Translations under genes and position numbers: made by a program
Shown here: in pieces, positions 6,624 to 59,737 of the stretch
How positions within the stretch are numbered: position 1 is the first letter of the stretch
Layout of the letters: every line of letters begins with the position of its first letter
From: an uncultured Planctomycetales bacterium
GTDB lineage: Bacteria; Omnitrophota; Gorgyraeia; Zapsychrales; Fredricksoniimonadaceae
Assembly (NCBI GenBank): GCA_964583975.1
Contig: CAZOXU010000010.1
Coordinates: 9,779-73,778 of the forward strand
Direction: 5' to 3'
Length of the DNA: 64,000 nucleotides
Notes under the pieces: model-generated
Told to the model about the DNA's origin: nothing
Database searches by the model: none
Seen by the model: the letters and a program-made list of their open reading frames with translations, nothing else

Positions 6624-7226
6624 ATGGAAAACCCCAACGAAAAGCGTCGTGCCGAGCTAGAAAAATATTTTGATGCGAAAAGTCCTTTTGCACTTTTACG
6701 TGTCGCTCAAATGAAGCGTGCCTGGAAGCAGAAAGACCGCCGAGAACTGACCTGGTGGGAAAATACCTATATCCCCATGCTTTTAAGCGGATTGTATTTA
6801 ACCTCTAAGCATTTCTTTCATAATTTAAAGCTGCATATCTTGCATGTGTTTGGTCTGTACAAAGATGTTCCAGCTGCTGTGACCTATCAATATCCCGAGC
6901 AAAAAAGACCATTGGCCCCACGCACACGCACACGTCATCGTTTGATGAAGCGAGAAGATGGTTCGCCTCGCTGTGTGGCTTGCATGATGTGTGAGACGGT
7001 TTGTCCGGCCCGCTGCATTGAAATTACTGCGGCCGAGCATCCTGATCCTAATATCGAAAAATATCCTGCTGAATTCATATTGGATTTAGGAAAGTGTGTG
7101 TACTGTGGTTTTTGTGTTGAAGTCTGCCCCGAAGATGCCATCCGCATGGACACTGGCAAGCTCGATACCGCCGAATACTCCCGCGAAAGCATGATCTACA
7201 ATAAAAAACGTTTGATGAACGACTAG
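6624..7226 (+). CDS. nuoI: NADH-quinone oxidoreductase subunit I (2x 4Fe-4S ferredoxin)
   Basis: Two CxxCxxCxxxCP motifs (CVACMMCETVCP, CVYCGFCVEVCP). It has a roughly 30-40 aa N-terminal extension relative to a typical NuoI, so the true start may be an internal Met. Confidence 0.85.
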   Translation: MENPNEKRRAELEKYFDAKSPFALLRVAQMKRAWKQKDRRELTWWENTYIPMLLSGLYLTSKHFFHNLKLHILHVFGLYKDVPAAVTYQYPEQKRPLAPRTRTRHRLMKREDGSPRCVACMMCETVCPARCIEITAAEHPDPNIEKYPAEFILDLGKCVYCGFCVEVCPEDAIRMDTGKLDTAEYSRESMIYNKKRLMND

Positions 7227-8657: not shown

Positions 8658-10883
8658 ATGAAATATAAAAATCTTACAAGAATTTTAATACTGTCCTTTG
8701 GGATGTTCTTTTTGTCTTCCAATATTTATGCTGCAGTGAATAACATGTCAGTGGTGCCGTTATTCGAAACTAAACGACCCGTCAAAACATGTAATCAAAA
8801 AGTAGTTTTCGCTAATACCTATCCGGAAGGAGTTACGCCAAGCGCACTATATTATCTGTTGGCTTGGAAAAATCCTGCCGTACCAATGCCAGCAGCCTGT
8901 TTAAGAGCCCCTGATCTTTTTGATAATTGGGGAACGGGTGCGATGTGTAAAGATAGGTTTATGGTGCTTGGAAACTCATTGCCGGAAAAATATTTAGTCC
9001 AAGCTAATCTTATGTCAGGATTTCCTAGTTTTTATTTAATGGCCATAGCTTTTACTAATCAAGATGTGTCATATTCAGTACCTCTTGCTATAGATACCAA
9101 TACAGATCCTGCAGCATGTACTTCTGGAGCGCCAATTCAATACTTGGTTCCTGGTAATGGTCTTCCAGCTTCACTTAATTTGGGCTTACAGGGAGCCCCA
9201 TCAAATCGTTATTACACTAGAAAGGTCGTCGGACGTGTTGTCCCATTGGAAGATTATATTATAGGGGGAACATTGAGCGATGGCTCTGTTGTTCCATCTG
9301 AAGTCGAGTTAAGTGTTGTTGCTTTCCATCCCGCTGGAATTGCCTACGTTGATTTTATTAATATATCAAGGGATCATCCAGCGGAAGCTGGATACAGAAG
9401 AGTTTATACAAAAACGATCGATTCTCATGGTATTGAGGCCTATGTTGTCAAAGCGAGATCTGCAGATCTTCTTGCTGGAGGCAACGATATAAAGATTGTT
9501 ATAGTGCCTAATGTTGGAGAAAAGTTGGTTATAGGTAATGATCTAACACCTGCTACAGCCGAAGACGGTACGGCAAAAATAACTATTTTTAATAATAAGC
9601 CAAATTCCTTGGGAGTTCAACCATTGCCTAGAACTAAAATTGCTATTCTTCCAGGGGGCGGTTATTCCTATGTATTTGATCTATCAACCCTTAACGCACC
9701 TGTTTGCGGAAGTGTATCTCGTCCTTGTAATAATATGGGGAGCGCTATAGAAGCAGCCAGAAGAGCAGCTTATATTTCTGGATTCGGGAACGATCTAAAA
9801 GGTGCTTATCTATATTATGTTGGACCAGGAACGGATACTTTTGGAGCTGTCCAAAACTACGGTAATCATACAGATGCCAGCTATCCTTTAATTATTCAAG
9901 GATTTGGAAATAAAAAGACAGTATTTGATAGAACCGCTTTAAATCCTAATGTTAATGCTTCTTTCTGGGGACAAATGGAACACGTCATCATTAAAAACGT
10001 GACTCTTAAACATCCTGGATTAGGAGAAGGACCTACTCCTGGTCTGCCAATCATACAGAGCGCCGGTATGCAATCTATAAGAAGATTGACCTTAGTCGAT
10101 GTTTATGCCAAGGGTCGAGGTATAAATCCTCCTGACTGTAATAGAATTGGCTATAGCCCAGCAGCTAGCGAAGTTGGTTTTGGCGCTGGAGGAATCGTAG
10201 AATTCAATGCCATTCGCTATTATAAAGAAAGTAACAGAGAAAATAGTTCAAGGACAAATTCTCTCTGGGCTTTTATATCCAATCATTCAGGAATAGCATT
10301 TAATGACAAGGGTATTTTCAATAGTGGAGTGTCTAATATTACAGGTGGAGAAGGAATAATTACATACTGTACTAATGATATGCCGCATCCAGACCAGAAT
10401 TATAATACACTAGGCAACCATGTTACTTCAGGTTTTTATGGGCTTGAAACAGCGTCCGGATCAACTCGCGCCCAAGGGCTTTTTATACCTTCACCTACGC
10501 ATGATGCACGAGGAGGTTATTTTCAAAATGGTCATTATAGTTCTCCAGGTAATAACGCTTTAATGCTTGGGAGTATATTTGATGTGGACTTTGTAGATAG
10601 TGAGTTTTTGGGTACCAATGGTAATCCATTAGAAAGCGGTAAAAGGTTTCAATCTACGGATAGCAGTGCGGCGAATGCTGCACACTATGATCCAACGTAT
10701 GCTTCTAATCCAAATAAAGGAGTAAGATTTTGGAATTCTTTAGAACCCCTTGCTGGTTCTACACAACTAGCTCCATTCCCATATTCTCAAGGAGCTACTC
10801 AAGTAAACGTCCCTTCACTTTATAATAACGCTGAACACACCTATACATCTGCCATCTATGTTGATTATACGGATAACCCATAG
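8658..10883 (+). CDS. secreted protein, paralog 1 of a three-member family with a predicted pectin-lyase-fold / parallel beta-helix
   Basis: 741 aa with an N-terminal signal peptide (ILILSFGMFFLSSNIYA). It shares domain order and motifs with the next two genes: VPL..(CN)QK, VPGNGL, SNRxY..K(V/P)(V/L)(G/A)R(V/W), a CG...PC..M.(S/G)AI-type N-cap, NNK. AAAGGA RBS. Confidence 0.7.
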   Translation: MKYKNLTRILILSFGMFFLSSNIYAAVNNMSVVPLFETKRPVKTCNQKVVFANTYPEGVTPSALYYLLAWKNPAVPMPAACLRAPDLFDNWGTGAMCKDRFMVLGNSLPEKYLVQANLMSGFPSFYLMAIAFTNQDVSYSVPLAIDTNTDPAACTSGAPIQYLVPGNGLPASLNLGLQGAPSNRYYTRKVVGRVVPLEDYIIGGTLSDGSVVPSEVELSVVAFHPAGIAYVDFINISRDHPAEAGYRRVYTKTIDSHGIEAYVVKARSADLLAGGNDIKIVIVPNVGEKLVIGNDLTPATAEDGTAKITIFNNKPNSLGVQPLPRTKIAILPGGGYSYVFDLSTLNAPVCGSVSRPCNNMGSAIEAARRAAYISGFGNDLKGAYLYYVGPGTDTFGAVQNYGNHTDASYPLIIQGFGNKKTVFDRTALNPNVNASFWGQMEHVIIKNVTLKHPGLGEGPTPGLPIIQSAGMQSIRRLTLVDVYAKGRGINPPDCNRIGYSPAASEVGFGAGGIVEFNAIRYYKESNRENSSRTNSLWAFISNHSGIAFNDKGIFNSGVSNITGGEGIITYCTNDMPHPDQNYNTLGNHVTSGFYGLETASGSTRAQGLFIPSPTHDARGGYFQNGHYSSPGNNALMLGSIFDVDFVDSEFLGTNGNPLESGKRFQSTDSSAANAAHYDPTYASNPNKGVRFWNSLEPLAGSTQLAPFPYSQGATQVNVPSLYNNAEHTYTSAIYVDYTDNP

Positions 10884-10911: not shown

Positions 10912-12972
10912 ATGCAAAACAGCAAATTAGTCAAATATTCTTATATAACTATAGCTGCAATTTGCTTGTCATTGTTATTTGCTAGCCCAAGCTTTGCGGT
11001 GGATCGAAATGATTTAGAGTTGTTGCCACTTGTGGATTCTAATAATATTGAAGCCTGTGGGCAAAAAATTAATAGTGTGATTGACTATAAAGTTGAAAAC
11101 TTAGAGGTGAGCAAGACTTTTTTATTTGCAGCTATAGATGATGGTACTATGCCTCAGATATGTAAGGACAATCCGTCAGGAAGTTCTCCAACGGGAGTTC
11201 CATGTGTTTATCGATTTCCTTATCAAGCTGAATTAGGTGATTCGCATATGCTTAGATTTTTAGCCCAAAATCAACCGAATGTCTATCTTTTTGTAGCTGG
11301 TTTAATCAATGCAAGTGAGGACAGAGTTTATTCTAAAGTGAAATCTTATAGATTTACGCCTTGTACACATACAACTCCAATGGTTAATATAGTTCCAGGA
11401 AATGGTTCGTTCACTGAAGATACCGTAGCCCCTCGTGGAAACGCATCGAATCGTTTATATAGTGTGAAACCACTTGCTAGATGGATTTCTTCAAATTATG
11501 GAATTTTTGGTGATGCTGAAAGCTCGAGCGAATTTGTTGTCAGTGTCGCAACTCGTGCCGATAACATTGAAAAAGTGGTGTTTGAAGTAAGAGATGTTAA
11601 TGATCATATCGGGCACGTAAATGTGCTAGCTTCACAAAAACGCATTGACCTAGAGGCAGGAGTTGAAGCTTATGTTGCAAAAATAAACAAAAATGCTTTC
11701 GATGCTGGAAAATTAACCATAAGAGCTTTTGTTATTCCAACCGTTGGGCTGCCTCTTAGCATGAGCGGTCCCTTGACTAGCCCGACACAAAGAAGTACGG
11801 ATGAACATGAAATATCTGTTTATAACAATAAGGATTCTAGCATTGTCAGGAAACATTTTTATATTGAAACCACTGGAGCAGACGTGGCAGGGTGTGGAAC
11901 TTTGGCGTTTCCTTGCGCAACGATGAATGGTGCAATTGATAAAGCTATGAATGCTGGAGTGACTGATTTTTCAGGTGCAACCTTGCATTTTGGTGAAGGA
12001 ACCTTTGCCTATGGTTGTACAGATCGGCGCTATCCAGGTCCACATACGGATAAGGCCACTATGATTTTTGAAGGGAAAATGACATCCAATGGTAAGAAAT
12101 TAACAACGATTAATCGAGGACTTGATTTGTCTCCGTGGGGTTGGAATGGTCAACAAATCACCGCGGTAACAAAAGCCGTATTTAAGAATTTTCTTATACG
12201 AAAAGATCCAACTAGTTCAAATCCTAGGGCAGCTATTATAGGAATAGGGGATAATTATGGTGTAGACACATCATTTTTAGTGGAGAATATTGATTTTAAA
12301 GGCTTGGGCAGAAATCCTGGAACATGCTTAACTGAAAATCTTCCATTTTCAGCAATATATGCAGAAATTCGAGATTCTTATATGGCTGGTTTCCAAGGAA
12401 ATGGAGCAGGGGAAAAAAATATTAGAAATTTTGTTTCCTGTTCTAGTATTGCATATTCTAATTCTGCAACAATTTTAAATTCTGCAGCGAAGGTGGATCA
12501 AACGGTTGGAGGTTGTACTATTCCTGGAAGCAGTCCACATGGCGATCTTATGAAATCATATAACGGGCATTTATATGTGAATGGATTCTGGTCTACACTA
12601 GAATCCTTAATTGTCTCTCAAGGACTATTTATTCAAGATTCTGATGTTGATATTAATAATGTTCATGTGACAGTGGGTGGGCCTAATGAACCTTCAATAG
12701 CAGCTGCTTTTTTATTTGGAAAACCAGATGGAGCTCCTGTTACAAATGTTACTTTTAGAAATAGCACTTTTGACAATGGGCCACGAAGAAATACCAGACT
12801 CGAAGCAGGGTTAGGAGCCTATCCTGGGACATCTGTAATAAGATTTATAAATACTCCTGGGGATAGCAACACGCCTTTTCTAGTGCCGGATAATGCGCAT
12901 ACTTGGGCCAATACATCATCAAATCCTTATTATTCCTCAGCGAGCGGTTTGGAATACTCTAGAGAGCAATAG
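10912..12972 (+). CDS. secreted protein, paralog 2 (parallel beta-helix-like)
   Basis: Start trimmed to the ATG at 10912, preceded by an AAGGAG RBS. Signal peptide present. Closest paralog is the third gene (HVGHVNVLASQKRID, KKDPTS(S/P)NPR, GLGR(N/D)PGTCL(T/S)E). Confidence 0.75.
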   Translation: MQNSKLVKYSYITIAAICLSLLFASPSFAVDRNDLELLPLVDSNNIEACGQKINSVIDYKVENLEVSKTFLFAAIDDGTMPQICKDNPSGSSPTGVPCVYRFPYQAELGDSHMLRFLAQNQPNVYLFVAGLINASEDRVYSKVKSYRFTPCTHTTPMVNIVPGNGSFTEDTVAPRGNASNRLYSVKPLARWISSNYGIFGDAESSSEFVVSVATRADNIEKVVFEVRDVNDHIGHVNVLASQKRIDLEAGVEAYVAKINKNAFDAGKLTIRAFVIPTVGLPLSMSGPLTSPTQRSTDEHEISVYNNKDSSIVRKHFYIETTGADVAGCGTLAFPCATMNGAIDKAMNAGVTDFSGATLHFGEGTFAYGCTDRRYPGPHTDKATMIFEGKMTSNGKKLTTINRGLDLSPWGWNGQQITAVTKAVFKNFLIRKDPTSSNPRAAIIGIGDNYGVDTSFLVENIDFKGLGRNPGTCLTENLPFSAIYAEIRDSYMAGFQGNGAGEKNIRNFVSCSSIAYSNSATILNSAAKVDQTVGGCTIPGSSPHGDLMKSYNGHLYVNGFWSTLESLIVSQGLFIQDSDVDINNVHVTVGGPNEPSIAAAFLFGKPDGAPVTNVTFRNSTFDNGPRRNTRLEAGLGAYPGTSVIRFINTPGDSNTPFLVPDNAHTWANTSSNPYYSSASGLEYSREQ

Positions 12973-13181: not shown

Positions 13182-15218
13182 ATGCTAATAAAGAACCTAA
13201 TCAGAAGCTCTTACATGACAATAGCTGCGTTTTGTTTGTCTTTGTCATTGACCAGCTTAAGTTATGCGGATTTAGAACTTGTTCCTTTGTTAGATTCAGA
13301 ACATATTAAAGCATGCAATCAAAAAGCAACCTTCATTGTTCATAATAATACTGAAAATGAAACGCCCGGCCTAACGGTTTTATTTATGGCCTTTGCTGGA
13401 ACTGTTTCAGAACAATGTTTAGCTAATCCTTACGCAGGAAACTGTGTAAATTCATATCCGTACAGGCTAGTGTTAAACAATAGTGGTTTATACACAATCC
13501 CAGCTGCACATCTCCCTAATTTAGTACTATGGGTTGGGCAAGTATTAACTAGCACCGCAAATCCAACACCACATGTGGCAGTTTCAAAAACTGTAAACTT
13601 TAATTTTGAAGCATGCCCATATGATCCAACAACAATTACTAAGGTAATCCCAGGCAATGGATTATCAACAGAAAATGTCACGCTTCCTCGTGGAAGTGGC
13701 CGATTGGCTAATAAACGGGTCGTAGCCAGATGGCTTTCCAAAATGAACCAAATCTTTGGCGACTCAGTATCTCGTGATAAATTTACAATTTCTGTAGGCA
13801 CACGAAAATCGGATGTATCAAAGGTTGTCGTAGAAGTTAGTGATTCTACAGGGCATGTTGGTCATTTAGACATTCTGGCTTCTCAAAAACGTATTGATCC
13901 AGATACAGGAATTTGGGCCTATGTAACAGAAATAGATAAGAATGATTGGGCTGCTGGCGATATAACCATAAAAGCAAAGGTTATTCCTACCAATGGCATA
14001 CCTTTTGTCATGGCTGGTTCTTTTGCTGCAGCAAGTAATACACAAAGATTAGACAATGAATTTGAATTGAAGATAGTTAACAATAAAAACAATGCTATCC
14101 CAAGATTAACTCACTTTGTAAATGCCAATGGTTCTGATACTCCAACATGCGGAACTACTCAAACTAATGCTTGCGCTAGTATGGATGGAGCTATCAAAAG
14201 CTTCCATAATCTTTATCCCAACAGTAAGTACGATGGTTGGAAAATTAAATTTGGTCCAGGAAATAACTTTGTATGGGGGTCAAATTATACCTACCTAGGT
14301 CCTCAAACAGAAAAAGTAGGATTTTTAGTCGAAGGGACCTTGTCTGATCTTGGTGAAAAACAGACAGTCTTTACCAGAGCAGTTGATTTAACCTCTGCGG
14401 GATATCCAGGCAATATATTGCTCACATCAATGGTAGAGGTGAAGGATGTAAAGTTTAAGAAAGACCCAACCTCTCCTAATCCGCGATCTTCCATTGTTGG
14501 TCCGTCTTGGGGTGGGTATCTTGGTTTAGAAAATGTGGAATGGATTGGTTTAGGGCGAGATCCAGGCACATGTTTATCTGAAGGATTTAGTACCACCGGC
14601 CTTATCGATGCAAGAAGACTAATGCTTAAAAATTCTTTAACTAATGGACAGTTCTTTAGTGTTGTTCAAAGTGCTGTTCTTGCTAACTCAAGCATTAGTT
14701 TTATTGACTTTTCATGGCTTGCTGGTGCAACTAGCCAGGTCAATCATGATGTCATTAATTGCCCTCCCAATGGAAATCCCCATGGTGATAAAGTAAAGCT
14801 TCAAGGCGGACATGGAGCTATATGGGGCTATAAGGATGGGAAAACCTTCGTCAATCATGCCCAAGGCTTATTTTTACAGGGCAATGATATATTGGTAGAA
14901 GACTCCTACGTTAGAATGGGTGATCCTGGTCAGCCTGCTATAGGAGGTAATCTATTTTTAGCAAATTATTCTGGAGGCTTCTTAGATAATATTCTTATGG
15001 ATAATGTTAAGACTGATGCTGGATGGACCAGATATGGTTGGATGGAAGGTGGTTATGGGCCGTTACCAACCAATAATGTTATAAAGTGTAATAACTGTAC
15101 TTTGTCTACTTATCCTAACGAGCCAGGAGGCACGTTACCTTCACAATCTGTATCGATAGGTGCGTGGAACTATGTATCACCCTATACGGGTGTTGAATAT
15201 TCAACAAGCAGTAATTAA
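13182..15218 (+). CDS. secreted protein, paralog 3 (parallel beta-helix-like)
   Basis: Start trimmed to the ATG at 13182 (GGGGAG RBS). Signal peptide present. Conserved blocks shared with paralog 2 throughout. Confidence 0.75.
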   Translation: MLIKNLIRSSYMTIAAFCLSLSLTSLSYADLELVPLLDSEHIKACNQKATFIVHNNTENETPGLTVLFMAFAGTVSEQCLANPYAGNCVNSYPYRLVLNNSGLYTIPAAHLPNLVLWVGQVLTSTANPTPHVAVSKTVNFNFEACPYDPTTITKVIPGNGLSTENVTLPRGSGRLANKRVVARWLSKMNQIFGDSVSRDKFTISVGTRKSDVSKVVVEVSDSTGHVGHLDILASQKRIDPDTGIWAYVTEIDKNDWAAGDITIKAKVIPTNGIPFVMAGSFAAASNTQRLDNEFELKIVNNKNNAIPRLTHFVNANGSDTPTCGTTQTNACASMDGAIKSFHNLYPNSKYDGWKIKFGPGNNFVWGSNYTYLGPQTEKVGFLVEGTLSDLGEKQTVFTRAVDLTSAGYPGNILLTSMVEVKDVKFKKDPTSPNPRSSIVGPSWGGYLGLENVEWIGLGRDPGTCLSEGFSTTGLIDARRLMLKNSLTNGQFFSVVQSAVLANSSISFIDFSWLAGATSQVNHDVINCPPNGNPHGDKVKLQGGHGAIWGYKDGKTFVNHAQGLFLQGNDILVEDSYVRMGDPGQPAIGGNLFLANYSGGFLDNILMDNVKTDAGWTRYGWMEGGYGPLPTNNVIKCNNCTLSTYPNEPGGTLPSQSVSIGAWNYVSPYTGVEYSTSSN

Positions 15219-21111: not shown

Positions 21112-21140
21112 TTGTATCGTGAAGAAGCGGTGGATATAAT
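21112..21140 (+). promoter_or_regulatory. sigma70-like promoter (TTGTAT-17-TATAAT) giving a leaderless transcript for the ANTAR regulator
   Basis: The -35 is TTGTAT at 21112-21117, the spacer is 17 nt, and the -10 is TATAAT at 21135-21140. The ATG at 21148 lies 7 nt after the -10 with no room for an SD sequence. Confidence 0.55.
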
Positions 21141-21147
21141 ACGCCCT

Positions 21148-22383
21148 ATGAAAAATAAGGCTCCCCAAAAAACTTTGAACATTTCTTCGAATGAAGAACT
21201 TAAAGTGCTTCGTTCGGTGGTAGACATTGCCTCCTCTGAACTGGATTTAAATCTCACCCTACAGTTGATTGTTAAAATTGTTAATGAAATGACCAAGGCT
21301 GACTCGGTTTTTATTTATTTGTTTGATGATAGAAAAGAATATCTCGTTTTGATGGCTTCTAAAACAGCGCATACTAAGGAACTTGGCAAGGTGCATTTGG
21401 AAATTGGTGAAGGTATTACGGGTTGGGTAGCGCGTGAAAGTAAAACTGTGGCCATTGCCAAATTGGCCTACAAAGACCAGCGCTTTAAGAGCTTTGATGT
21501 TTTACCTGAAGATCGTTATGAAGCGTTTTTGTCAGTCCCTGTTATCTTCAAGGGGAAAGCCATTGGAGTTATTAATGTGCAGCATAAACGCGAGCAGGAT
21601 TATTCAGCGACGACAGTTAATCTGATTGAAATGATTGCCAAGCAAGTTGGTGGCGTTATCGAACACGCCAGGCTTTTTGAAGAAACTAAGAAGAAGGCCT
21701 TACAATTCGATTCGTTGGTCAAGGTTTCTCGTTCAATTACCTCCGAACATTATCTCGATGAAATTTTAAATTTGATTGTAGTTGTGACAGCTGAAATGCT
21801 TAATTCTAAAATTTGTTCGATCATGTTATTAGATGAGAAGGGCCAGGAACTGGTCATTAAAGCGACCCAGTCGCTCAATGAAGACTACAAAAAGAAACCG
21901 AATATTAGCGTGGAAAACTCCTTAAGCGGAACAGTTCTTAAGACGCGTAAACCCATTGCAGTTTCGGATGTCCGTCACGAAAAAAAATATGCGTACCCAG
22001 ATTTGGCAGCCAAGGAAGGATTGACCTCCATGGTGGCTGTGCCGATGATTGTGAAGGACAAGGCTATTGGAGTCATCAACGTTTATACCAAACAACCGCA
22101 CAAGTTTACCGATGAAGAGGTCAATGTGTTACAAATGGTGGCCAATCAGGCAGCGGTTGCTGTTGAAAATACCAAACTAGTTGAAGAAGCGATCAAAGCT
22201 AAGGAAGCCCTTGAGACCCGCAAGGTCATTGAGAGGGCTAAAGGCATTATTATGAAGATGAACAATCTTTCCGAAGAAGCCGCCCACCGACTTATTCATA
22301 AAAAGAGCATGGATGCCAGCCGCTCCATGAAAGATGTGGCCGAATCCATTATCCTCATGGCAGATTTACAGAAGTCGTTATAA
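21148..22383 (+). CDS. GAF-GAF-ANTAR RNA-binding antitermination regulator
   Basis: Two GAF-like domains and a C-terminal ANTAR-like helical domain (residues about 360-411, KVIERAKGIIM..L.E.EA...I...S). The start is set at the ATG at 21148 because the ORF-track start at 21112 lies inside the predicted promoter. Confidence 0.75.
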   Translation: MKNKAPQKTLNISSNEELKVLRSVVDIASSELDLNLTLQLIVKIVNEMTKADSVFIYLFDDRKEYLVLMASKTAHTKELGKVHLEIGEGITGWVARESKTVAIAKLAYKDQRFKSFDVLPEDRYEAFLSVPVIFKGKAIGVINVQHKREQDYSATTVNLIEMIAKQVGGVIEHARLFEETKKKALQFDSLVKVSRSITSEHYLDEILNLIVVVTAEMLNSKICSIMLLDEKGQELVIKATQSLNEDYKKKPNISVENSLSGTVLKTRKPIAVSDVRHEKKYAYPDLAAKEGLTSMVAVPMIVKDKAIGVINVYTKQPHKFTDEEVNVLQMVANQAAVAVENTKLVEEAIKAKEALETRKVIERAKGIIMKMNNLSEEAAHRLIHKKSMDASRSMKDVAESIILMADLQKSL

Positions 22384-22498: not shown

Positions 22499-22807
22499 GT
22501 GGAATTTATTGAAACGCTTTTGTTTAGCAAAGCAGCAAGAGGGCTACTAAATGAGGAGGAAATAGCCCAATTACAAATGACATTGATGTTTTATCCGGCG
22601 ATGGGGGCGTTTATTCCCGGCTCAGGAGGCTTAAGGAAGCTCCGATGGTTAGGGGTTGGAAAAGGCAAACGCGGAGGCTTAAGAATTATTTATTATTGGG
22701 TCTCACAGGACCATCAAATTTATCTTTTATATGTTTATAAAAAGAATCAACAAGAAGATTTGACTGCCGAACAGATTGAATATTTAAGACGATTACTGGA
22801 GGAATAA
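22499..22807 (+). CDS. type II toxin, RelE/ParE superfamily (HigB/Gp49-like)
   Basis: 102 aa with a GGLRIIYYW..........LLYVYKK motif. GTG start with an AAGGTG RBS. Directly followed by a 96 aa HTH protein. Confidence 0.65.
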   Translation: MEFIETLLFSKAARGLLNEEEIAQLQMTLMFYPAMGAFIPGSGGLRKLRWLGVGKGKRGGLRIIYYWVSQDHQIYLLYVYKKNQQEDLTAEQIEYLRRLLEE

Positions 22808-22808
22808 G

Positions 22809-23099
22809 ATGAATAAGAAGGATTTTGATAAACTCGTGACCAGCATTAAACAGATGAAGCAAATAAAGGCAGGAAAACTTAAGGCGGCCAAAGCAACAAA
22901 GTTTAATCACATAGAGATTAAATCTATTCGTCAGAAACTGCATCAATCCCAGTCAGAGTTTGCTTTTATGATTGGCGTTAGCCCTTCGACTTTGAAGAAT
23001 TGGGAACAGGGCCTTAGAACTCCAATGGGGCCAGCCATGGCTTTACTAACTGTCGCACAGAAAAACCCTCATGCCGTCTATGATGCTTTGCATTCTTAA
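22809..23099 (+). CDS. HTH XRE-family antitoxin (HigA-like)
   Basis: 96 aa, helix-turn-helix (SQSEFAFMIGVSPSTLKNWEQGLRTP). Its start is 2 nt after the toxin stop. Confidence 0.65.
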   Translation: MNKKDFDKLVTSIKQMKQIKAGKLKAAKATKFNHIEIKSIRQKLHQSQSEFAFMIGVSPSTLKNWEQGLRTPMGPAMALLTVAQKNPHAVYDALHS

Positions 23100-28787: not shown

Positions 28788-28816
28788 TTGACAATCAACA
28801 TTTCATCGGATATATT
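28788..28816 (+). promoter_or_regulatory. sigma70 consensus-like promoter upstream of amtB (TTGACA-17-TATATT)
   Basis: TTGACA at 28788-28793, a 17 nt spacer, and TATATT at 28811-28816. A leader of roughly 220 nt follows. Confidence 0.6.
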
Positions 28817-28964
28817 TGCTGCGTTGTTAAAGCTCAAAGCAAAGAAGTTTTGGGCGAGATGTAAGGACAAAGATGGTCCTCTTGGAAGAGTAACGATACT
28901 CCCTCAAGAGGATTTTTTATTTTGTAGGACAGGCTAAGATAGCCTAAGTCAAGGACACAGAAGT

Positions 28965-29010
28965 CCAGTTTTCCGCAGGCAGTGAAGCGGGGGGCTGGAT
29001 TTTTTTATTG
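28965..29010 (+). terminator. terminator/attenuator-like hairpin plus T-run in the amtB leader
   Basis: CCAGTTTTCCGC-(10 nt loop)-GCGGGGGGCTGG (12 bp with G-U pairs) followed by ATTTTTTTATTGG, 28 nt before the amtB ATG. A second hairpin+T-run (CCTCTTG ... CAAGAGG ATTTTTTATTTT) lies at 28878-28924. Confidence 0.5.
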
Positions 29011-29038: not shown

Positions 29039-30286
29039 ATGGAAACAACACCAGTAAATCCAATTAATGCCGGGGATACGGCATGGGTCTTGGTCTCATC
29101 AGCACTTGTTTTGCTGATGACAGCACCAGGCTTAGCATTTTTCTATGGAGGGATGGTCAGACGCAAAAACATCTTAGGCGTTTTAATGCAATGTTTTATG
29201 TGTTTGGCTGTAGTGAGTATCTTATGGGTAGTTTATGGGTATAGTTTAGCTTTCAGTAAGGGAACCCCGTTCATCGGAGGTTTGGATTGGTTTATGTTAA
29301 AAGGCGTTGGTCAAGATCCTAACACAGACTACGCTGGAACTATTCCGCATTTAGCTTTTATGATCTTCCAAGCTATGTTTGCGGTCATCACACCAGCTTT
29401 GATCATTGGTGCTTATGCTGAACGCATGAAATTCTCCGCATTTTTACTTTTTACAGCGCTTTGGTTGACCTTCGTATACTGCCCAATTGCCCACATGGTT
29501 TGGGGTCTAGGTGGTTTTATCGGTGGTTTAGGAGCCAAGGATTTCGCTGGTGGTACCGTTGTTCATATCAATGCAGGTGTTGCAGGCTTAGTTACAGCCT
29601 TATATTTAGGTAGACGCGTTGGAACAGATAAACCTGGGATGCATAATGTGCCATTTGTTGTCTTAGGGTCTGCTTTACTGTGGTTCGGATGGTTTGGTTT
29701 CAATGCTGGTTCAGCCTTAGCTGCTAATGGTTTAGCTGCTCATGCTTTTGTGACCACCAACACCGCTACCGCTGCTGCTGCCATTAGCTGGGCTTTGATG
29801 GAATGGATCTTTGCAGGTAAACCAACCACCTTGGGTGCTGCTTCAGGTGCTATTGCAGGTTTAGTTGCCATCACCCCTGCTTGCGGTTTCGTTGATGTGG
29901 CTGGCTCATTATGGATTGGTTTATTAGTTAGCGTATTCTGCTACTGTATGGTTGCTTTCGTAAAACCAAAGTTGAAATACGATGACACCTTGGATGCTTT
30001 TGGGGTTCATGGCATCGGCGGACTTTTCGGTGCTTTAGCTACCGGTATCTTCGCTACCAAGGCTGTTAATGCTGCTGGTGTGGATGGGTTGCTTGCAGGA
30101 AATCCAGGGCAATTATGGATTCAAGCCCAAGCTTGTTTGATCACCATTGCTTTTACAGCAGTTGTCACATGGATTATCTGCTTCGTGGTTGATAAAATCG
30201 TAGGTCTTCGTGCTGAGCAAGAAGAAGAGATTATGGGGTTGGATTTATCTCAACATCACGAAAGAGCATATACAATTTTAGATTAA
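29039..30286 (+). CDS. amtB: ammonium transporter
   Basis: 415 aa from the ATG at 29039, preceded by an AGGAGG SD. Amt/MEP family multi-TM sequence. The ORF-track start at 28982 (GTG) runs through the terminator-like hairpin. Confidence 0.9.
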   Translation: METTPVNPINAGDTAWVLVSSALVLLMTAPGLAFFYGGMVRRKNILGVLMQCFMCLAVVSILWVVYGYSLAFSKGTPFIGGLDWFMLKGVGQDPNTDYAGTIPHLAFMIFQAMFAVITPALIIGAYAERMKFSAFLLFTALWLTFVYCPIAHMVWGLGGFIGGLGAKDFAGGTVVHINAGVAGLVTALYLGRRVGTDKPGMHNVPFVVLGSALLWFGWFGFNAGSALAANGLAAHAFVTTNTATAAAAISWALMEWIFAGKPTTLGAASGAIAGLVAITPACGFVDVAGSLWIGLLVSVFCYCMVAFVKPKLKYDDTLDAFGVHGIGGLFGALATGIFATKAVNAAGVDGLLAGNPGQLWIQAQACLITIAFTAVVTWIICFVVDKIVGLRAEQEEEIMGLDLSQHHERAYTILD

Positions 30287-30340: not shown

Positions 30341-30682
30341 ATGAAATTAGTGCTAGCAATCATACAGCCTCATAGACTCGAAGAAGTCAAAAAGGAGCTC
30401 TATGCCGCCGACGTTAACTTGATCACCGTTTCTGAGGTCTTAGGACATGGTCGTCAGGTGGGTGTTGATGAGTATTACCGTGGAGTGAAAGAAACCGGAA
30501 ACCTGTTGCGTAAGATTCAGGTTGAAATCGCAGTCAACGAAGATTATGTTGAACCAACTGTTAAAGCAATTATTAAGGGTGCTAGAACAGGTAAAATAGG
30601 CGATGGAAAGATTTTCGTCTTAGATTTGCCTCGCTGTATCCGCATCCGTACGGGCGAAGAAGGTTCCAAGGCGATTGGGTAG
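30341..30682 (+). CDS. glnK: nitrogen regulatory protein P-II (GlnK-type, linked to amtB)
   Basis: 113 aa P-II fold sequence with a T-loop tyrosine region (DEYYRG). AGGAGG SD. Immediately downstream of amtB. Confidence 0.88.
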   Translation: MKLVLAIIQPHRLEEVKKELYAADVNLITVSEVLGHGRQVGVDEYYRGVKETGNLLRKIQVEIAVNEDYVEPTVKAIIKGARTGKIGDGKIFVLDLPRCIRIRTGEEGSKAIG

Positions 30683-30731: not shown

Positions 30732-30760
30732 TTGACATGATTAGGGTTGTATATTAATAT
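30732..30760 (+). promoter_or_regulatory. sigma70-like promoter upstream of glnA type III (TTGACA-17-TAATAT)
   Basis: TTGACA at 30732-30737 and TAATAT at 30755-30760. The leader contains a hairpin AGGTTCTTC...GGAGAACCT (30786-30819) followed by TGCTTTTTAGA. Confidence 0.5.
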
Positions 30761-30883
30761 TCGACTCTATTCAATATAAACAGTGAGGTTCTTCTTCGAT
30801 TCATTCGCAAGGAGAACCTTGCTTTTTAGACACTAAATTTGAGTTAAAGCTAACGATAACATAATCAAAAAGGGGGAATCATC

Positions 30884-33028
30884 ATGGGGCAAGGACGTCA
30901 CGAAGTTTTAGAAGCATGTGCCGAAGAAGGCAGCTGCTGTAACGGCTCTTTTTCTCAGCACCTTCCTGATCATTTCGGGGACAATGTATTTAATTTGAAG
31001 GTCATGAAGCAAGTTTTGTCATCCAAAGCTTATGCTTCGATCGAAAAGACGATTAAAGAAGGTGGCCGCTTAGATCCAACAATTGCTGATGAAGTAGCTG
31101 ATGCTATGAAGAACTGGGCGATTTCTAAGGGAGCGACCCACTTTACACATTGGTTCCAACCAATGACCGGTACCACCGCTGAAAAGCATGATTCTTTCAT
31201 CAGCTGGAACGATGAAGGTGGCATTATCTTAAGCTTTGGTGGTAAAGAACTTATTCAAGGCGAGCCAGATGCTTCATCTTTCCCTTCTGGTGGTTTACGT
31301 GCAACTTTCGAAGCTCGTGGTTATACGGGTTGGGATCCAACTTCTCCTGCCTTTATTAAAGAAGGTCCCAATTGCGCCACTCTTTGTATTCCTACATTCT
31401 ATATCGGTTATCATGGTGAAGCGTTAGATAAAAAGACACCTTTATTGCGCTCCATGAATGCCTTATCTAAACAAATCTGTCGTCTGGCTGTGCTTTTTGG
31501 TATTGATACCAAAGGCAAACGTGCCTATTGCACTTTAGGACCAGAACAAGAATATTTCTTGATCGACAAAGCTCATTTCCAAGCTCGTTTGGATTTAGTC
31601 CAAACCGGCCGCACTTTGTTTGGCCGTAAACCAGCTAAACATCAACAACAAGAAGATCATTATTTTGGAGCTATCAAGCCCAGAATTATGGCTTTCATGG
31701 AAGATTTGGACCGCACCTTATGGGGCTTAGGAATGCCTTCTAAGACTCGTCACAATGAGGTTGCTCCTGCTCAATATGAAATCGCTCCTATCTATGAAGA
31801 TTTAAACACTGCTGTTGACCACAACATGATGGCCATGGAAATCATGCGTCAATTAGCGGATAAACACGGTTTGGCATGTTTGTTACATGAAAAGCCTTTT
31901 GCTGGCGTTAACGGATCAGGAAAACACAACAACTGGTCTGTGGTTGGTCCAGATGGTAAGAACTGGCTTTATCCTGGAAAAACACCCCATGAAAACGCCA
32001 AATTCTTAACCACCTTGTGTGCCATCATCAAGGCCGTTGACACCTATGCTGATTTGCTTCGTGTCACCGTTGCTTCTGCCGGAAATGATCATCGTTTAGG
32101 GGCTAATGAAGCACCGCCCGCGATCATTTCTATTTTCTTAGGCGAACAACTTTATGATATCGTCGAGCAAATTGAAAAAGGTGGCGCTAAGAGTTCAAAA
32201 CAAGGAAGCGCGATCCACGTTGGGGTTGATTCATTGCCATCGTTGGCTAAAGACACTACGGATCGTAATCGCACCTCACCATTTGCTTTCACTGGTGCAA
32301 AGTTTGAATTCCGTGCGCTTGGTTCTAATATGAATCCTTCATCTGCGAACATGGTGCTTAACACCATCGTAGCTGAAGCGATCAGTGATATCTGCGATCA
32401 ATTAGAAGCAGAGAAGAAATCCGGAAAAGATTTCAACAGCTCATTACAAAAAGTTTTACAAAACATCATTAAGAACCACAAGCGCGTCTTGTTTAATGGT
32501 GATAACTATACTTCTCAATGGCATGCTGAAGCCAAAAAGAGAGGTCTTCCTAACTTGAAAAATACTCCTGATGCTTTGGAAGCGATCAAAGCTAAGAAGA
32601 ATGTTCAAGTCTTAGTGAAGCACGGCATCTTAAGCGAGAAAGAAGTTGCTTCTCGTTATGAAATCAATGTGCATGCTTACAATACTGTGATTGCTTTGGA
32701 AGGCAGCTGTGCAGCTACCATGGCAAGAACACAATTAATTCCAGCAGCAATCGAATATCAAAAAGAACTAGCTGATGCCATCAAGAGCGTTGGTTCAGTA
32801 GGTAAAACTGCTAACCAAAAGAAGCTTTTGAAGGAGATCTCTGGATTAATTGATCAAGCATTAGCGATCACTGATACTCTAGAAGCTTCCATTGAGAAAC
32901 ATGATTCTGCTAAAACCAGTGCAGCGATGGCTAAATTACGTGAAGCAATCGATGCGCTTGAAGGTTTTGTGCCTGCATCGATCTGGCCCGTTCCTTCTTA
33001 TGCAGAAATGCTCTTAATGAACGCATAA
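30884..33028 (+). CDS. glnN: glutamine synthetase type III (GlnN)
   Basis: 714 aa, the length and N-terminal region typical of type III GS. GGGGAATCAUC-type RBS (AAAGGGGGAA). Confidence 0.88.
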
Positions 33029-33135: not shown

Positions 33136-33879
33136 ATGATTACTATCATCAAACACATTGATATCGAAGGCCCGGGGACCTTGGGAGACTTCTTAGAATA
33201 CCGATCAATCCCTTACCAAATCATTGATTTAGGAGAAGGCGAGCGTCTGCCTGAAGACTTTGCTAACATCGATGCCGTGGTTGTTCTTGGCGGCCCCATG
33301 AATGTCGATGAAGAAGATAAGTATCCATTTTTAAAGCAAGAAGATAGATTTATCAAAGAGATTTTACGACGCGAAATTCCTTTTCTGGGAATTTGTTTAG
33401 GTTCACAGCTCTTAGCTAAAGCAGCAGGGGCCAGAGTAGTTAAATCACCGGTTAAAGAAATTGGTTGGTATACGATTCAATTAACGCCGCAAGGCCAACA
33501 AGATCCTTTGTTTAAAAACTTTAAAGAAGATGAACCGATCTATCACTGGCACGGGGATATGTTTGAAATTCCATTGACAGGTCAGTTATTAGCAACAGCC
33601 CAAGGTTGCCCACACCAAGCCCTCAAGATAGGTGAGAAAGCCTATGGCATACAGTTTCATGTAGAGGTCACCGATAAAAGCATTAAAGACTGGTGCGAGG
33701 AATATTGCCAGAACGACCTGCCCGGTCGGCCTGAACATGCCAAGAGCATGCTGGATGATTATGCGCGTTACCAAAAAGAATTCTTAAGGCAGGCTAATAC
33801 GATTTATGAGAATTTTTTAGGAATTACAAAATTAGGGACAGCGCCCTATTTTTCTAAAGTGGGAACCAACAATAAATAG
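33136..33879 (+). CDS. class I glutamine amidotransferase (GATase1-like)
   Basis: Nucleophile-elbow motif GICLGSQ with downstream conserved His/Glu (YHWHGD, GIQFHVEV). Start trimmed to MITIIKH. Confidence 0.75.
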   Translation: MITIIKHIDIEGPGTLGDFLEYRSIPYQIIDLGEGERLPEDFANIDAVVVLGGPMNVDEEDKYPFLKQEDRFIKEILRREIPFLGICLGSQLLAKAAGARVVKSPVKEIGWYTIQLTPQGQQDPLFKNFKEDEPIYHWHGDMFEIPLTGQLLATAQGCPHQALKIGEKAYGIQFHVEVTDKSIKDWCEEYCQNDLPGRPEHAKSMLDDYARYQKEFLRQANTIYENFLGITKLGTAPYFSKVGTNNK

Positions 33880-33903
33880 GGCGCTGTCCCTAATTTTAAG
33901 ACT

Positions 33904-38488: not shown

Positions 38489-41400
38489 ATGAACGATAGT
38501 TTTTATCAAAATCCTAAAAAACAAGGCCTTTTTGATCCTCAAGCTGAAAATGATGCTTGCGGGGTAGGCTTTATTGTGAATGTCAAAAATAACAAGAGCC
38601 ATGACATTGTGCGTGGCGGGATCCAAATCCTAGAAAACTTGTCTCACCGCGGTGCTTGCGGCTGCGATCCTGAAACTGGCGATGGCGCTGGAATTATGAT
38701 CCAAATGCCCGATGCCTTTTTCCGCAAAGAATTAGCCAAACAAGAAATAGAACTTCCTGCCCTTGGAGATTACGGGGCTGGGATGGTGTTTTTACCTCAA
38801 GATCTTTCTGATCGTAATATCCTAGAAGAATGGACCGAGCATATCATCCATGAAGAGGGCCAGAAATTCTTAGGTTGGCGCCAAGTGCCTCATGAACCAA
38901 CCAAGATTGGTCGTGTGGCCCGTTCGGTCATGCCAGCTTTTAAGCAGCTTTTCATTGCTCGTGGCAAAAACACCAAGCCAGAAGATTTTGATCGCAAGCT
39001 TTTTGTGATCCGTAAGCGCTTATGGGCTAAGATCTATGCTTCAACCATTTCCCAGAAAAATTATTATTATTTCTGTTCACTAAACAGCAAAACCTTTGTG
39101 TATAAAGGCCAGCTGATGAGCGAACAAGTTGATCGTTTCTTTCCAGACCTATCTGATCCTCTGATGGTATCAGCTATCGCTCTGGTCCACTCACGTTATT
39201 CAACCAATACATTTCCTTCATGGTCACTGGCTCACCCCTATCGTATGGTGGCCCATAACGGAGAAATCAATACACTTCGTGGTAACATGAATTGGATGCA
39301 TGCCCGTGAAAAACAATTTGTGTCAAAAGTGTTTGGCGATGATCTTAAGAAGGTTTTGCCTATTGTAGTCCCTCACGGATCAGACACAGCTACCTTTGAT
39401 AACGTTTTAGAAATGTTAGTGTTGGCTGGTCGTTCTCTACCACATGCCATGATGATGATGGTCCCTGAAGCTTGGAGTGGACATCAAGGTATGGATCCTG
39501 TCAAACGTGCTTTTTATGAATATCATTCCTGCTTGGTTGAGCCATGGGATGGTCCAGCTGCTTTGGCTTTTTGCGATGGACGTTATGTGGGTGCTGTGCT
39601 TGATCGTAATGGACTTCGTCCTTCACGTTATGTGGTGACTAAAGATGATATGGTCATTATGGCCTCCGAGGCAGGCGTATTGCCTATTGATCCTCAAAAT
39701 GTCGTCAAAAAAGGACGTCTTCAGCCTGGTAAAATGTTTTTAGTAGACACCACTGAAGGTCGCATCATTGATGACAAGGAAGTTAAAGAATTTTATGCCA
39801 AAGCCAATCCTTACGGCAAATGGCTTAAAGATAATGTGGTTGATATTCGAGAATTGCCAAAGCCAAAGAAGGTCCAAGGCTTGAATGAAAAGACCCTTTT
39901 GCAGCGTCAGCGCGCTTTTGGATACACATTAGAAGATCTGAAAATCCTTTTGATGCCTATGGCCCAAGGTGAAGAAGCCACAGGTTCAATGGGAACAGAT
40001 ACACCGCTTGCTGTGTTATCAGCTCGTCCACAATTACTTTATAATTATTTCAAACAACTCTTTGCCCAAGTGACCAATCCACCGATCGATGCTATTCGTG
40101 AAGAAATCATCATGGCTGAAGATATGATGTTGGGCCCTGAGAGCAATCTTTTGGAAGAAACGCCAGAGCATTGCCATCGTCTGTGGATCCAACGACCAAT
40201 TTTAACTAATGAAGAATTAGAGAAGATCGCACATATCAATAAAGGCAGCCTCAAAGGCGTTACCTTACCCATTTTCTTTGATAAAAAAGACGGACCCGAA
40301 GGCTTAGAAAAAGCCATGGAAATTTTATTTAAGAAGGCTGACAAAGCCATCGACGATGGTTTTAGCATTTTGATTCTTTCTGATCGTGCCGTGAATGAAA
40401 AATCCGTTCCTATTCCATCTTTATTGGCTGTTTCTGGATTGCATCATCATTTAATCCGTCAAGGAACCAGGACCAAGGTCAGTTTGGTTTTGGAATCAGG
40501 CGAAGCCCGGGAATTGCATCATTTTGCTGTATTGATTGGCTATGGAGCTAACGCAATTAATCCTTATTTGGCTTTTGAAAGCATTGAGCACATGATTTTA
40601 GATGGTCGTTTCGAAGAGCCATTGGCTTTCAAAGATGCTGAGAAAAATTTCATTAAGGCCTGCCATAAAGGACTTTATAAGGTTATCTCAAAGATGGGAA
40701 TTTCAACCATCCAATCGTATTGCGGAGCTCAAATCTTTGAGGCTGTCGGGTTAGGCACCGAGCTTGTTGAACGATATTTTACAGCCACTCCTTCGCGTAT
40801 CGGTGGAATTGATTTAAAGACAGTGGCTCAAGAAGCTTTGAAGCGTCATGACGTTGGTTTCCCAACGATCCCAAGCCAAGATCAAATGCTTGAGCAAGGT
40901 GGAGACTATCATTGGCGACGTGAAGGTGAATATCATCAGTTGAATCCTCAGACCATTGCTTTGTTGCAACACTCTGTTCGAAGTGGAGATTATAAAATTT
41001 TTAAGGCTTTTTCAAAAGCTGTGAATGAACAAAACAAGGGCGTTGCCAATATCCGCGGTCTTTTGAAATTCAAAAAAGGCCATCCTATACCTATTGCTGA
41101 AGTTGAGCCTGCTAGTGAAATCGTCAAACGTTTTGCCACCGGCGCTATGAGCTATGGATCTGTATCTAAGGAAGCTCATGAGACTTTAGCTATTGCCATG
41201 AATCGCTTAGGTGGTTTCTCTAACACTGGCGAGGGTGGCGAAGATGCTAATCGTTATAAGAAAGATCCTAACGGTGATTGGCGCCGCAGCCGTATTAAGC
41301 AGGTGGCTCAAGGACGCTTTGGGGTCACCATTGAATATTTAGTCAATGCTGATCAATTGCAAATCAAGATGGCTCAAGGAGCCAAACCCGGTGAAGGTGG

Positions 41401-59349: not shown

Positions 59350-59361
59350 TTGATGATTTAT

Positions 59362-59443
59362 GCGCGGGTGGCGGAATTGGTATACGCGCACGTTTGAGGG
59401 GCGTGTGCCGCAAGGCTTGAGGGTTCAACTCCCTCCCCGCGCA
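59362..59443 (+). tRNA. tRNA-Leu (anticodon GAG), class II with a long variable arm
   Basis: Manual fold. Acceptor GCGCGGG/CCCGCGC with discriminator A. D-arm GCG-GAATTGGTATA-CGC. Anticodon stem CACGT/GCGTG with loop TTGAGGG, giving anticodon GAG. 13 nt variable arm TGCCGCAAGGCTT. T-arm GAGGG-TTCAACT-CCCTC. No encoded CCA. Confidence 0.8.
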
Positions 59444-59455
59444 CTGTATAAAAAT

Positions 59456-59737
59456 ATGCATTACGTTTACGTATTAAGAAGTATTAAAAATCAAAGACGT
59501 TATGTAGGAAGTACGGGGTTATTGCCTGAAGAACGTTGTCGAGAGCATAATGCGGGCGCTAGTAGGTGGACAAAAGGCAATCGTCCATTTGTTTTAATGT
59601 ATCAAGAAAGCTATTCGACAAATACAGAAGCACGGAAACGTGAGAATTTTCTAAAAAGTGGGGTAGGAAGGAAATTCTTAGATAGCCTTTTAAATCATGA
59701 AAGGGTTTCCGCCGAAGGCGGATCAGCCTCTGGCTGA
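59456..59737 (+). CDS. GIY-YIG nuclease superfamily small protein (UPF0213/YhbQ-like)
   Basis: 93 aa from the ATG at 59456 with the GIY-YIG core (YVYVLRS ... RYVGSTGLL ... R..EHN). The ORF-track N-terminal extension runs over the tRNA and is not credible. Confidence 0.7.
   Translation: MHYVYVLRSIKNQRRYVGSTGLLPEERCREHNAGASRWTKGNRPFVLMYQESYSTNTEARKRENFLKSGVGRKFLDSLLNHERVSAEGGSASG

Follow-up and report, generated by a model that had tools for sequence, protein, structure and literature searches.

A tandem-GAF/ANTAR protein as a likely antiterminator of amtB-glnK in an uncultured Omnitrophota bacterium

Which genes are controlled by a one-component regulator whose sensor and RNA-binding domains are joined in a single protein, and by what mechanism? 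This question is raised by a 64-kb stretch of one uncultured Omnitrophota genome (hereafter the window), in which a gene at 21148-22383 encodes a protein with two GAF domains and a C-terminal ANTAR domain, and genes of nitrogen assimilation follow on the same strand. We computed the protein domains, the RNA structures and their overlap with terminators, and the conservation, covariation and linkage of the locus. The results point to a signal-responsive antiterminator of amtB-glnK, with the tandem GAF domains as the sensor and the ANTAR domain as the output, a reading to which we assign a probability of roughly 0.7.

The regulator and the nitrogen genes downstream

The regulator gene and its domains are as follows.
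21148 to 22383, forward strand: coding sequence (CDS) for the GAF-GAF-ANTAR regulator of 411 aa; the coordinates include the stop (open reading frame (ORF) list, Pfam, homologue lengths)
21187 to 21672, forward strand: GAF1, EI-Ntr/PtsP-type, residues ~14-175 (NCBIfam PRK11061, PDB 3ci6, Foldseek)
21754 to 22167, forward strand: GAF2, residues ~203-340, with similarity to NifA-like GAF (best Pfam stretch 203-340; TIGR01817)
22198 to 22353, forward strand: ANTAR RNA-binding domain, residues 351-402, reached via the long helix 322-372 (Pfam, PDB, AF2)

The sequence-only reading of this DNA had assigned two GAF-like sensor domains and an ANTAR-like output domain to the protein, and profile hidden Markov models confirm the assignment well over the Pfam thresholds. 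GAF_2 matches in two stretches (7.4e-44), GAF matches at 1.9e-42, and ANTAR (PF03861) matches residues 351-402 with 9.4e-20 and 70.6 bits (cut-off 27.3), covering profile positions 3-54 of 54. The ANTAR part also matches solved ANTAR structures, including 6wsh (1.2e-7), 1s8n (Rv1626; 1.8e-6) and 4akk (NasR; 2.5e-5). In the AlphaFold2 (AF2) model, with a mean predicted local distance difference test score (pLDDT) of 78, GAF1 (~14-175) leads into a long helix (154-195); GAF2 (~200-340) comes next, and then another long helix (322-372) continues into a three-helix ANTAR domain (helices 322-372, 376-390 and 394-410). The nearest folds of the model are the tandem-GAF sensors of PDE2A, PDE5 and CyaB2. 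A receiver domain is not found, as Pfam gives no Response_reg match and the N-terminal 340 residues are the two GAF domains. Homologues of the regulator carry the annotation "Candidatus Omnitrophica/Omnitrophota".

GAF1 matches NCBIfam PRK11061 (PtsP) over residues 18-178 (3.9e-41) and PDB 3ci6 over its full length with ~33% identity (2.7e-25), and its predicted fold superimposes on 3ci6 in Foldseek with a TM (template modelling) score of 0.86-0.89 and a root-mean-square deviation of 2.2-2.5 A. The GAF2 region matches TIGR01817 over residues 186-406 (1.8e-29). The EI-Ntr (PtsP) GAF domain binds glutamine in E. coli, Sinorhizobium and Caulobacter and acts as a reporter of nitrogen status (PMC4848567), and the likeness of GAF1 to this domain suggests direct sensing of nitrogen status by the regulator.

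The genes to be considered as targets lie downstream of the regulator on the same strand.
29039 to 30286, forward strand: amtB, ammonium transporter, whose true start is ATG 29039 after the Shine-Dalgarno (SD) sequence AGGAGG (sequence and in-frame searches)
30341 to 30682, forward strand: glnK (P-II), co-transcribed with amtB
30884 to 33028, forward strand: glnN (glutamine synthetase III, GSIII)
38489 to 43033, forward strand: gltB

The regulator gene is followed by a RelE-like/HTH pair, a gene for a 1606-aa protein and a zeta-toxin/AAA_33-like gene, and then by amtB and glnK. After glnK come, in order, glnN, a class-I GATase, nadE, a GT2 gene, two more ORFs, gltB and gltD. The presence of nitrogen-assimilation genes downstream of the regulator, as first proposed, is thus borne out by the identification of amtB, glnK, glnN, GATase, nadE, gltB and gltD.

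The amtB leader RNA and its counterparts in relatives

The region upstream of amtB contains a promoter and two successive modules of small hairpins and terminators.
28788 to 28816, forward strand: amtB promoter TTGACA-17-TATATT, 11/12 matches (promoter scan; kept in orthologous leaders)
28832 to 28855, forward strand: P1 of module 1, GCUCAAAGC-AAAGAA-GUUUUGGGC, 9 bp, hexaloop with A1 and G4 (folding, covariation)
28864 to 28880, forward strand: P2 of module 1, AGGAC-AAAGAUG-GUCCU, 5 bp, 7-nt loop with A1 and G4 (folding, relatives)
28876 to 28918, forward strand: intrinsic terminator T1, stem 28876-28913 and then a U-run
28931 to 28945, forward strand: upstream hairpin of module 2, AGGCUA-AGA-UAGCCU, which relatives also have, with a loop that is not conserved
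28953 to 28966, forward strand: P2' of module 2, GGAC-ACAGAA-GUCC, with A1 and G4 in a hexaloop
28960 to 29006, forward strand: intrinsic terminator T2, 17-bp stem 28960-29003 and U-run 29000-29006

The leader is ~215 nt long, and its folding is far more stable than that of shuffled sequences (z = -5.9). The 3' arm of P2 (28876-28880) lies inside the 5' arm of T1, and the 3' arm of P2' (28963-28966) lies inside the 5' arm of T2. Because the 3' arm of the small hairpin starts the 5' arm of the terminator, hairpin and terminator are mutually exclusive in both modules. The loops of P1, P2 and P2' all carry A at the first and G at the fourth position (A1/G4).

These features suggest the following mechanism, for which we infer RNA binding, the ligand and the sign of its effect, dimerisation and the transcription start site. 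Transcription of amtB-glnK would start at a near-consensus sigma-70-type promoter that probably needs no activator, and RNA polymerase would halt within the leader at T1 and then at T2. The ANTAR domains of the active regulator, presumably as a dimer, would bind the A1/G4 stem-loops, P1 and P2 before T1 and P2' before T2, and stabilisation of the small hairpins would block the terminator stems and allow read-through into amtB-glnK. With two terminators in series, leakage would be low and the response steeper. The GAF domains would set the state of the regulator, itself probably produced from a leaderless mRNA; the most likely logic is that abundant glutamine, possibly antagonised by 2-oxoglutarate, keeps the ANTAR output off, and that this output comes on under nitrogen limitation (glutamine low and 2-oxoglutarate perhaps high).

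A described ANTAR target consists of two stem-loops of at least 3 bp with hexanucleotide A1/G4 loops and a short linker between them, 5-12 nt long in eut (PMC3369931); the 3' arm of P2 overlaps an intrinsic terminator's 5' arm, and such targets belong to genomes with an ANTAR gene, where they typically precede genes of nitrogen metabolism. Module 1 has this arrangement of two stem-loops, with a 9-bp P1, an 8-nt linker and a 5-bp P2. The dual-hexaloop motif proposed for these leaders is found in part. P1 (AAAGAA) and P2' (ACAGAA) comply, and the covarying A1/G4 hairpins overlap the terminators; the P2 loop (AAAGAUG) has 7 nt, and in module 2 no A..G loop is conserved in the upstream hairpin. 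A strict scan that required two neighbouring hairpins, each with an A..G hexaloop, returns nothing in the leaders, because the P2 loop is one of 7 nt. The matches that it does give, inside ORFs and at 33833-33865, were put down to chance or to another inverted repeat. Rfam at gathering thresholds finds only a tRNA in the whole window, and at E <= 10 it finds no meaningful family for the amtB and glnN leaders between 28600 and 31000; a glutamine riboswitch (glnA RNA) or another known cis-regulator was rejected for lack of an Rfam match.

Scanning genome and metagenome collections with the protein yielded 18 distinct Omnitrophota loci and ~25 Syntrophorhabdaceae loci (~50% identity), which are designated below by L numbers where needed; the positions of amtB and glnK in them come from in-frame tblastn. 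The amtB leaders examined share the layout promoter-P1-P2-T1-hairpin-P2'-T2, with the exceptions of L010, which has module 1 only, and L005, which has no U-run after the second module. Most amtB leaders have a P2 loop of 7 nt; L009 and L034 have one of 6 nt. In L002, amtB1-glnK1, amtB2-glnK2 and glnN each have their own module. Three tandem hairpin-terminator modules are found in L011 (12820-12991, preceding amtB-glnK-glnN) and L012 (11270-11452, preceding glnN), and each of these consists of one GGGC-A..GA.-GUCC hairpin over its own terminator, with no obvious P1 partner. In Syntrophorhabdaceae, nadE lies directly 3' of the orthologue, and its leader has a dual hairpin and a terminator, with P1 UCUUUUAGC-AACGUA-UGCUAAAAGG and P2 GGAC-NNNGGC-GUCC overlapping the terminator; further hairpin-terminator units stand 5' of amtB-glnK in this family. 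In two phyla, then, ANTAR-type leaders stand beside the regulator gene and precede amtB-glnK, glnN or nadE.

The paired positions of these structures change together among the relatives.
Module 1 (P1 and P2, 8 sequences): 99.1% of cells paired, 4 pairs changed on both sides, score reached by 0/500 shuffles
P2' (9 sequences): 100% paired, A-U to G-C swap (4 vs 5 sequences), 4/500 shuffles
T2 base: 87% paired, changes in step with the shared arm, 3/500 shuffles

A covariance model built from module 1 (R1) recovers orthologous amtB leaders only, and because it is too specific, a script that finds an A..G hairpin over a terminator was used for the target search. The pattern so defined arises by chance in shuffled sequence, and the case for the leaders rests for this reason on conservation, covariation, strand bias and linkage. 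In one scan, 23 hairpin-terminator units lie on the strand of the regulator and 4 on the opposite strand, and another scan gives a similar result. A unit on the reverse strand of the window (7352 to 7301), AGAC-ACAGAT-GTCT over a weak terminator-like stem, has no reverse-strand gene downstream and was dismissed as probably chance or a bidirectional terminator.

The regulator could bind the same hairpins and control translation or mRNA stability, like mycobacterial ANTAR targets. Actinobacterial ANTAR-RNA pairs do repress translation (bioRxiv 10.1101/660928), and in L005 the second module leads into an SD and a small ORF in place of a U-run. Against this reading, the two P2 hairpins of the window each overlap a strong terminator of stem and U-run and lie 37 to 160 nt 5' of the amtB SD, and the T2 base covaries with the 3' arm of P2'. 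We regard control at these later steps as very improbable. In L005 itself, where the module ends in SD and ATG, the arrangement hints at translational rather than transcriptional control. Small ORFs with their own SD stand between the second attenuator and amtB in L003 (~6670-6850), L004 (~11500-11670), L005 (~11460-11610) and L006 (~14085-14170); the window amtB leader has no small ORF at this place.

Control of the leader without any ANTAR protein, by a metabolite-binding RNA, another RNA-binding protein or constitutive pausing or attenuation, would make the A..G hairpins coincidental. The P2 loop that departs from the hexaloop is in line with this view, and so is the chance rate of single loose hairpin-terminator units, ~1.7 per 64 kb. 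No Rfam match argues for it even at the permissive threshold, and A1/G4 and the stems are kept with compensatory changes across the amtB, glnN and nadE leaders, always beside the regulator; coincidence is thus a very improbable explanation.

Antitermination by the tandem-GAF/ANTAR protein gains further support from linkage. Either amtB-glnK or glnN lies directly 3' of the regulator gene in L002, L004, L005, L009, L012 and L034, and within a few genes of it in 13 of the 18 distinct Omnitrophota loci. Since amtB-glnK or glnN adjoins or nears the regulator in other Omnitrophota loci, the segment 22499-28628 of the window has the look of an insert that split an ancestral regulator-amtB arrangement. 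The same gap bears on whether a different ANTAR regulator encoded elsewhere, for example a REC-ANTAR protein like Geobacter GnfR or NasT, serves the amtB leader and leaves the GAF-GAF-ANTAR protein to other targets. Unrelated genes fill the 6.4 kb between regulator and amtB, and only 64 kb of the genome are visible, both of which speak for such a regulator. Against this, the regulator gene adjoins ANTAR-type leaders in many Omnitrophota loci and in another phylum at 50% identity, and no second ANTAR gene was noticed by these leaders in the loci with intervening genes that were examined (e.g. L011). We therefore consider service by another ANTAR protein improbable. In the close relative L026 (83% identity), a gene for a PAS-domain protein, not amtB, lies directly 3' of the regulator. 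The stretch before it, 9225-9360, carries a promoter, a hairpin of 6 bp, another hairpin (GGC-ACAGAA-GCC) and a terminator, which means that a signalling protein may belong to the regulon.

Several points weigh against the proposed control of amtB-glnK by this protein. The view covers 64 kb of the genome, and other ANTAR proteins elsewhere could serve these leaders; the 6.4 kb between regulator and amtB are occupied by the RelE/HTH pair, the 1606-aa protein and the zeta-toxin-like gene. The P2 loop of most amtB leaders is not a hexaloop, the upstream hairpin of module 2 is without a conserved A..G loop, and many modules in relatives consist of a single canonical hairpin, whereas EutV requires two (PMC3369931). 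No Rfam family fits the amtB leader. An A..G hairpin overlapping a terminator occurs 1.7 (4-bp stems) to 3.6 (3-bp stems) times per shuffled window. The assignment of glutamine is one of homology, and GAF domains within one family can differ in ligand. To these are added the degenerate glnN hairpin and the plain gltB leader of the window, described below.

The glnN gene has a promoter and a leader terminator of its own.
30732 to 30826, forward strand: glnN promoter TTGACA-17-TAATAT and leader terminator (~30782-30822)

Its leader contains one terminator, and the only candidate hairpin is a 3-bp AAC-AGUGAG-GUU; in the alignment of relatives' glnN leaders, GAGGGC-ACNGAN-GUCCUC stands 5' of the terminator. 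The glnN gene of the window is a possible second target. The gltB leader has no terminator and no hairpin, its stability is no better than that of shuffles (z = -0.24), and gltB was rejected as a target on these grounds. The sequence-only reading had described strong promoters followed by leaders with hairpins and T-runs for the nitrogen genes and had proposed the regulator as a candidate antiterminator of the cluster. The description holds for amtB with two terminators and glnN with one, and fails for gltB; as a target of antitermination, amtB-glnK has good support, glnN is uncertain and gltB has no support.

Start and promoter of the regulator gene

The region in front of the regulator contains the following elements, and a similar layout precedes the divergent nuoJ.
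21112 to 21117, forward strand: -35-like TTGTAT, 3/6 matches to TTGACA; its TTG is also the start of the mechanical ORF and of the deposited 423-aa annotation (sequence)
21135 to 21140, forward strand: -10 TATAAT, separated from the -35 by 17 nt and from the ATG by 7 nt (sequence; position kept in orthologues)
21058 to 21021, reverse strand: leaderless-looking start of nuoJ (Pfam Oxidored_q3), TTGACA (21058-21053)-16-TATATT (21036-21031)-7 nt-ATG 21023 (sequence)

The mechanical ORF (21112-22383) opens at TTG, and an identical protein has been deposited with 423 aa from this codon. Nearly all of the 120 best matches are 409-411 aa long, their N-termini (M-x-x-x-x-K-N-K-K-L) line up at ATG 21148, and L003 and L004 have in-frame stops immediately 5' of the ATG, between the -10 and the ATG. 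Based on these three observations, the true CDS almost certainly starts at ATG 21148 and encodes 411 aa.

The promoter had been described as near-consensus and placed before an ATG without SD. The -10 is perfect, while the -35 matches at three of six positions, and for this reason the promoter is not listed in the consensus scan. The spacer between TATAAT and ATG 21148 (ACGCCCT) has no purine-rich SD, so the absence of an SD stands. Promoter-like matches of such quality are no commoner in the region (36) than expected from shuffles (38.8), and the evidence for this promoter is therefore comparative and not statistical. A strong -10 (TATAAT, TATATT, TATACT or TATCAT) stands 6-9 nt 5' of the ATG in 8 of ~17 distinct Omnitrophota orthologues (the window, L001, L003, L004, L006, L007, L010 and L026), and in these its distance to the ATG is kept while the flanking sequence diverges. 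A leaderless mRNA is expected to have its -10 about 6-8 nt 5' of the AUG and to lack an SD, and the window sequence has this layout. The regulator mRNA is likely to be leaderless, with a predicted start at or next to the A of ATG 21148.

The layout is not confined to the regulator. The start of nuoJ, which is probably ATG 21023 and not the listed TTG 21032, shows it as well, and a leaderless-looking layout is found at 5 of ~50 ORF starts, about ten times the random rate, as the combined pattern stands 5' of 0.8% of all window ATGs. This Omnitrophota genome may contain many leaderless genes, and the occurrence at nuoJ and other operon heads marks the layout as a habit of the genome rather than a peculiarity of the regulator. 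The proposal of a leaderless regulator mRNA thus keeps the conserved -10 spacing, seen in about half of the orthologues, and loses its claim to be special. The nuoJ gene is divergent from the regulator and heads a separate nuoJKLMN operon. At three other operon heads, ATG 45130 (forward strand), ATG 8397 (reverse strand) and ATG 33136 (forward strand), TATAAT stands 6-9 nt 5' without an SD, and the products are a 335-aa protein without Pfam match, a His_Phos_1 protein and the GATase, respectively.

Alternatively, the regulator mRNA could start further upstream and be translated from TTG 21112 or GTG 21130, with TATAAT as mere coding sequence (D-I-I). The deposited 423-aa protein, the weak -35 and an in-frame GTG (window) or ATG (L001) 18 nt 5' of 21148 are consistent with such a leader, and in L002, L005 and L035 the -10 box lies 23-30 nt upstream, implying short leaders. 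The lengths and alignment of the homologues, the stops in L003 and L004, the -10 spacing kept despite divergent flanks, and the enrichment of the layout at nuoJ and other operon heads all argue against it, and we regard a leader as unlikely, though it deserves serious attention. Syntrophorhabdaceae orthologues have an ordinary leader of ~45 nt with an SD. In these (L014-L020), a TTGACA-17-TATGCT promoter stands ~40-60 nt 5' of the regulator start, and the regulator's own leader contains a conserved small hairpin, e.g. ACGGCA-AUGA-UUGCCGU, which makes autoregulation possible.

Known systems and other features of the window

The proposed system resembles several known ones. Like NasR of Klebsiella oxytoca, which acts on the nasF leader, the regulator would be a one-component protein with an N-terminal ligand sensor, a helical linker and a C-terminal ANTAR domain, and in both cases the RNA site (a predicted one for the present protein) is an A1/G4 hexaloop hairpin that lies upstream of an intrinsic terminator and competes with it, in front of a nitrogen-assimilation operon (PMC3369931, PMC7496416). 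NasR differs in its NIT sensor, where the present protein has tandem GAF domains, in its nitrate signal, where internal nitrogen status is likely here, and in its target nasF with one attenuator, where the target here is amtB-glnK (and glnN or nadE in relatives) and the leader has two or three attenuators in tandem. GnfK/GnfR of Geobacter sulfurreducens also uses ANTAR antitermination for glnK-amtB and other nitrogen leaders (PMC2995071). GnfR is a phosphorylated REC-ANTAR protein under a histidine kinase and a sigma-54 cascade, whereas here there is no receiver and a sigma-70-type promoter precedes the target.

The P1-linker-P2 arrangement with A1/G4 loops and P2 over the terminator is shared with EutV/EutW of Enterococcus faecalis, and the 8-nt linker falls within the 5-12 nt of that system; EutV is a response regulator, unlike the present protein, and the 7-nt P2 loop of most amtB leaders and the single canonical hairpin of module 2 and of many relatives' modules set the RNA apart. 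The N-terminal GAF of EI-Ntr (PtsP), to which GAF1 aligns over its full length with ~33% identity, is coupled to a phosphoenolpyruvate-dependent phosphotransferase output and not to an RNA-binding ANTAR domain, and glutamine binding by GAF1 is a prediction from this homology. Actinobacterial GAF-ANTAR proteins and PAL (PAS-LOV-ANTAR) are likewise one-component ANTAR proteins with sensors of the PAS/GAF families (bioRxiv 10.1101/660928; PMC7496416), while actinobacterial ANTAR targets are described as acting on translation.

Pfam contains proteins of the GAF-ANTAR architecture in abundance (bioRxiv 10.1101/660928; PMC7496416). The literature found on ANTAR proteins contains no experimentally characterised GAF-ANTAR protein, with "no specific examples" in 2012 (PMC3369931), and as of 2020 only NasR and PAL had been characterised among one-component ANTAR proteins (PMC7496416). 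Ramesh et al. predicted in 2012 that various bacteria have ANTAR sites 5' of genes for P-II, ammonium transporters and Glu/Gln synthases (PMC3369931), and the kind of system is therefore already known; ANTAR antitermination has since then been a widespread prediction for nitrogen genes. The new element is that a conserved tandem-GAF/ANTAR family with an EI-Ntr-type GAF, found in Omnitrophota and Syntrophorhabdaceae, is assigned to such leaders as their predicted regulator. The RNA departs from the canonical motif in its 7-nt P2 loop, its single-hairpin modules and its two to three tandem attenuators. The locus and its relatives offer a testable pairing of a GAF-ANTAR protein with defined RNA sites and with glutamine as the candidate ligand, and a first concrete model of nitrogen regulation for Omnitrophota, an uncultured phylum; the natural variants of loop, hairpin number and attenuator number probe the strictness of the dual-hexaloop rule.

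A more far-reaching possibility, which we put forward tentatively and hold to be rather doubtful, is that nitrogen control in Omnitrophota and Syntrophorhabdaceae has the tandem-GAF/ANTAR protein as its master regulator. Through its EI-Ntr-type GAF, the protein would read glutamine or 2-oxoglutarate directly, and it would control a whole assimilation regulon (amtB-glnK, glnN and nadE) by antitermination alone from constitutive promoters, replacing factors of the NtrBC, GlnR and NtcA types. Its RNA sites would lie off the dual-hexaloop rule, with single hairpins in attenuators that number two or three in tandem, and with a P2 loop conserved at 7 nt. If true, this would imply another binding stoichiometry, or a response with multiple checkpoints that is more switch-like.

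The segment between the regulator and amtB begins with a small gene pair.
22499 to 23099, forward strand: RelE-like toxin gene (weak Pfam match) and HTH_3 antitoxin-like gene

The 1606-aa protein that follows has no Pfam match and contains an internal duplication of ~165 aa (KKxLSDLSxxEL...NKDxAM twice); homologues of its N-terminal ~370 aa are encoded beside the regulator gene in L001, L004, L005, L007, L008, L010, L033 and L035. The zeta-toxin/AAA_33-like protein of the segment has 192 aa. The GATase-nadE junction carries a perfect 16-nt inverted repeat, TAGGGACAGCGCCCTA ... TAGGGCGCTGTCCCTA (33833-33848 and 33877-33892, 28 nt apart), each copy of which is itself near-palindromic; it is not an ANTAR-type unit. 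In addition, a tRNA with a long variable arm lies at 59362-59443 on the forward strand (Rfam, 50.3 bits), and because of the overlap with it, the listed ORF at 59360-59737 is probably spurious, at least at its 5' end.

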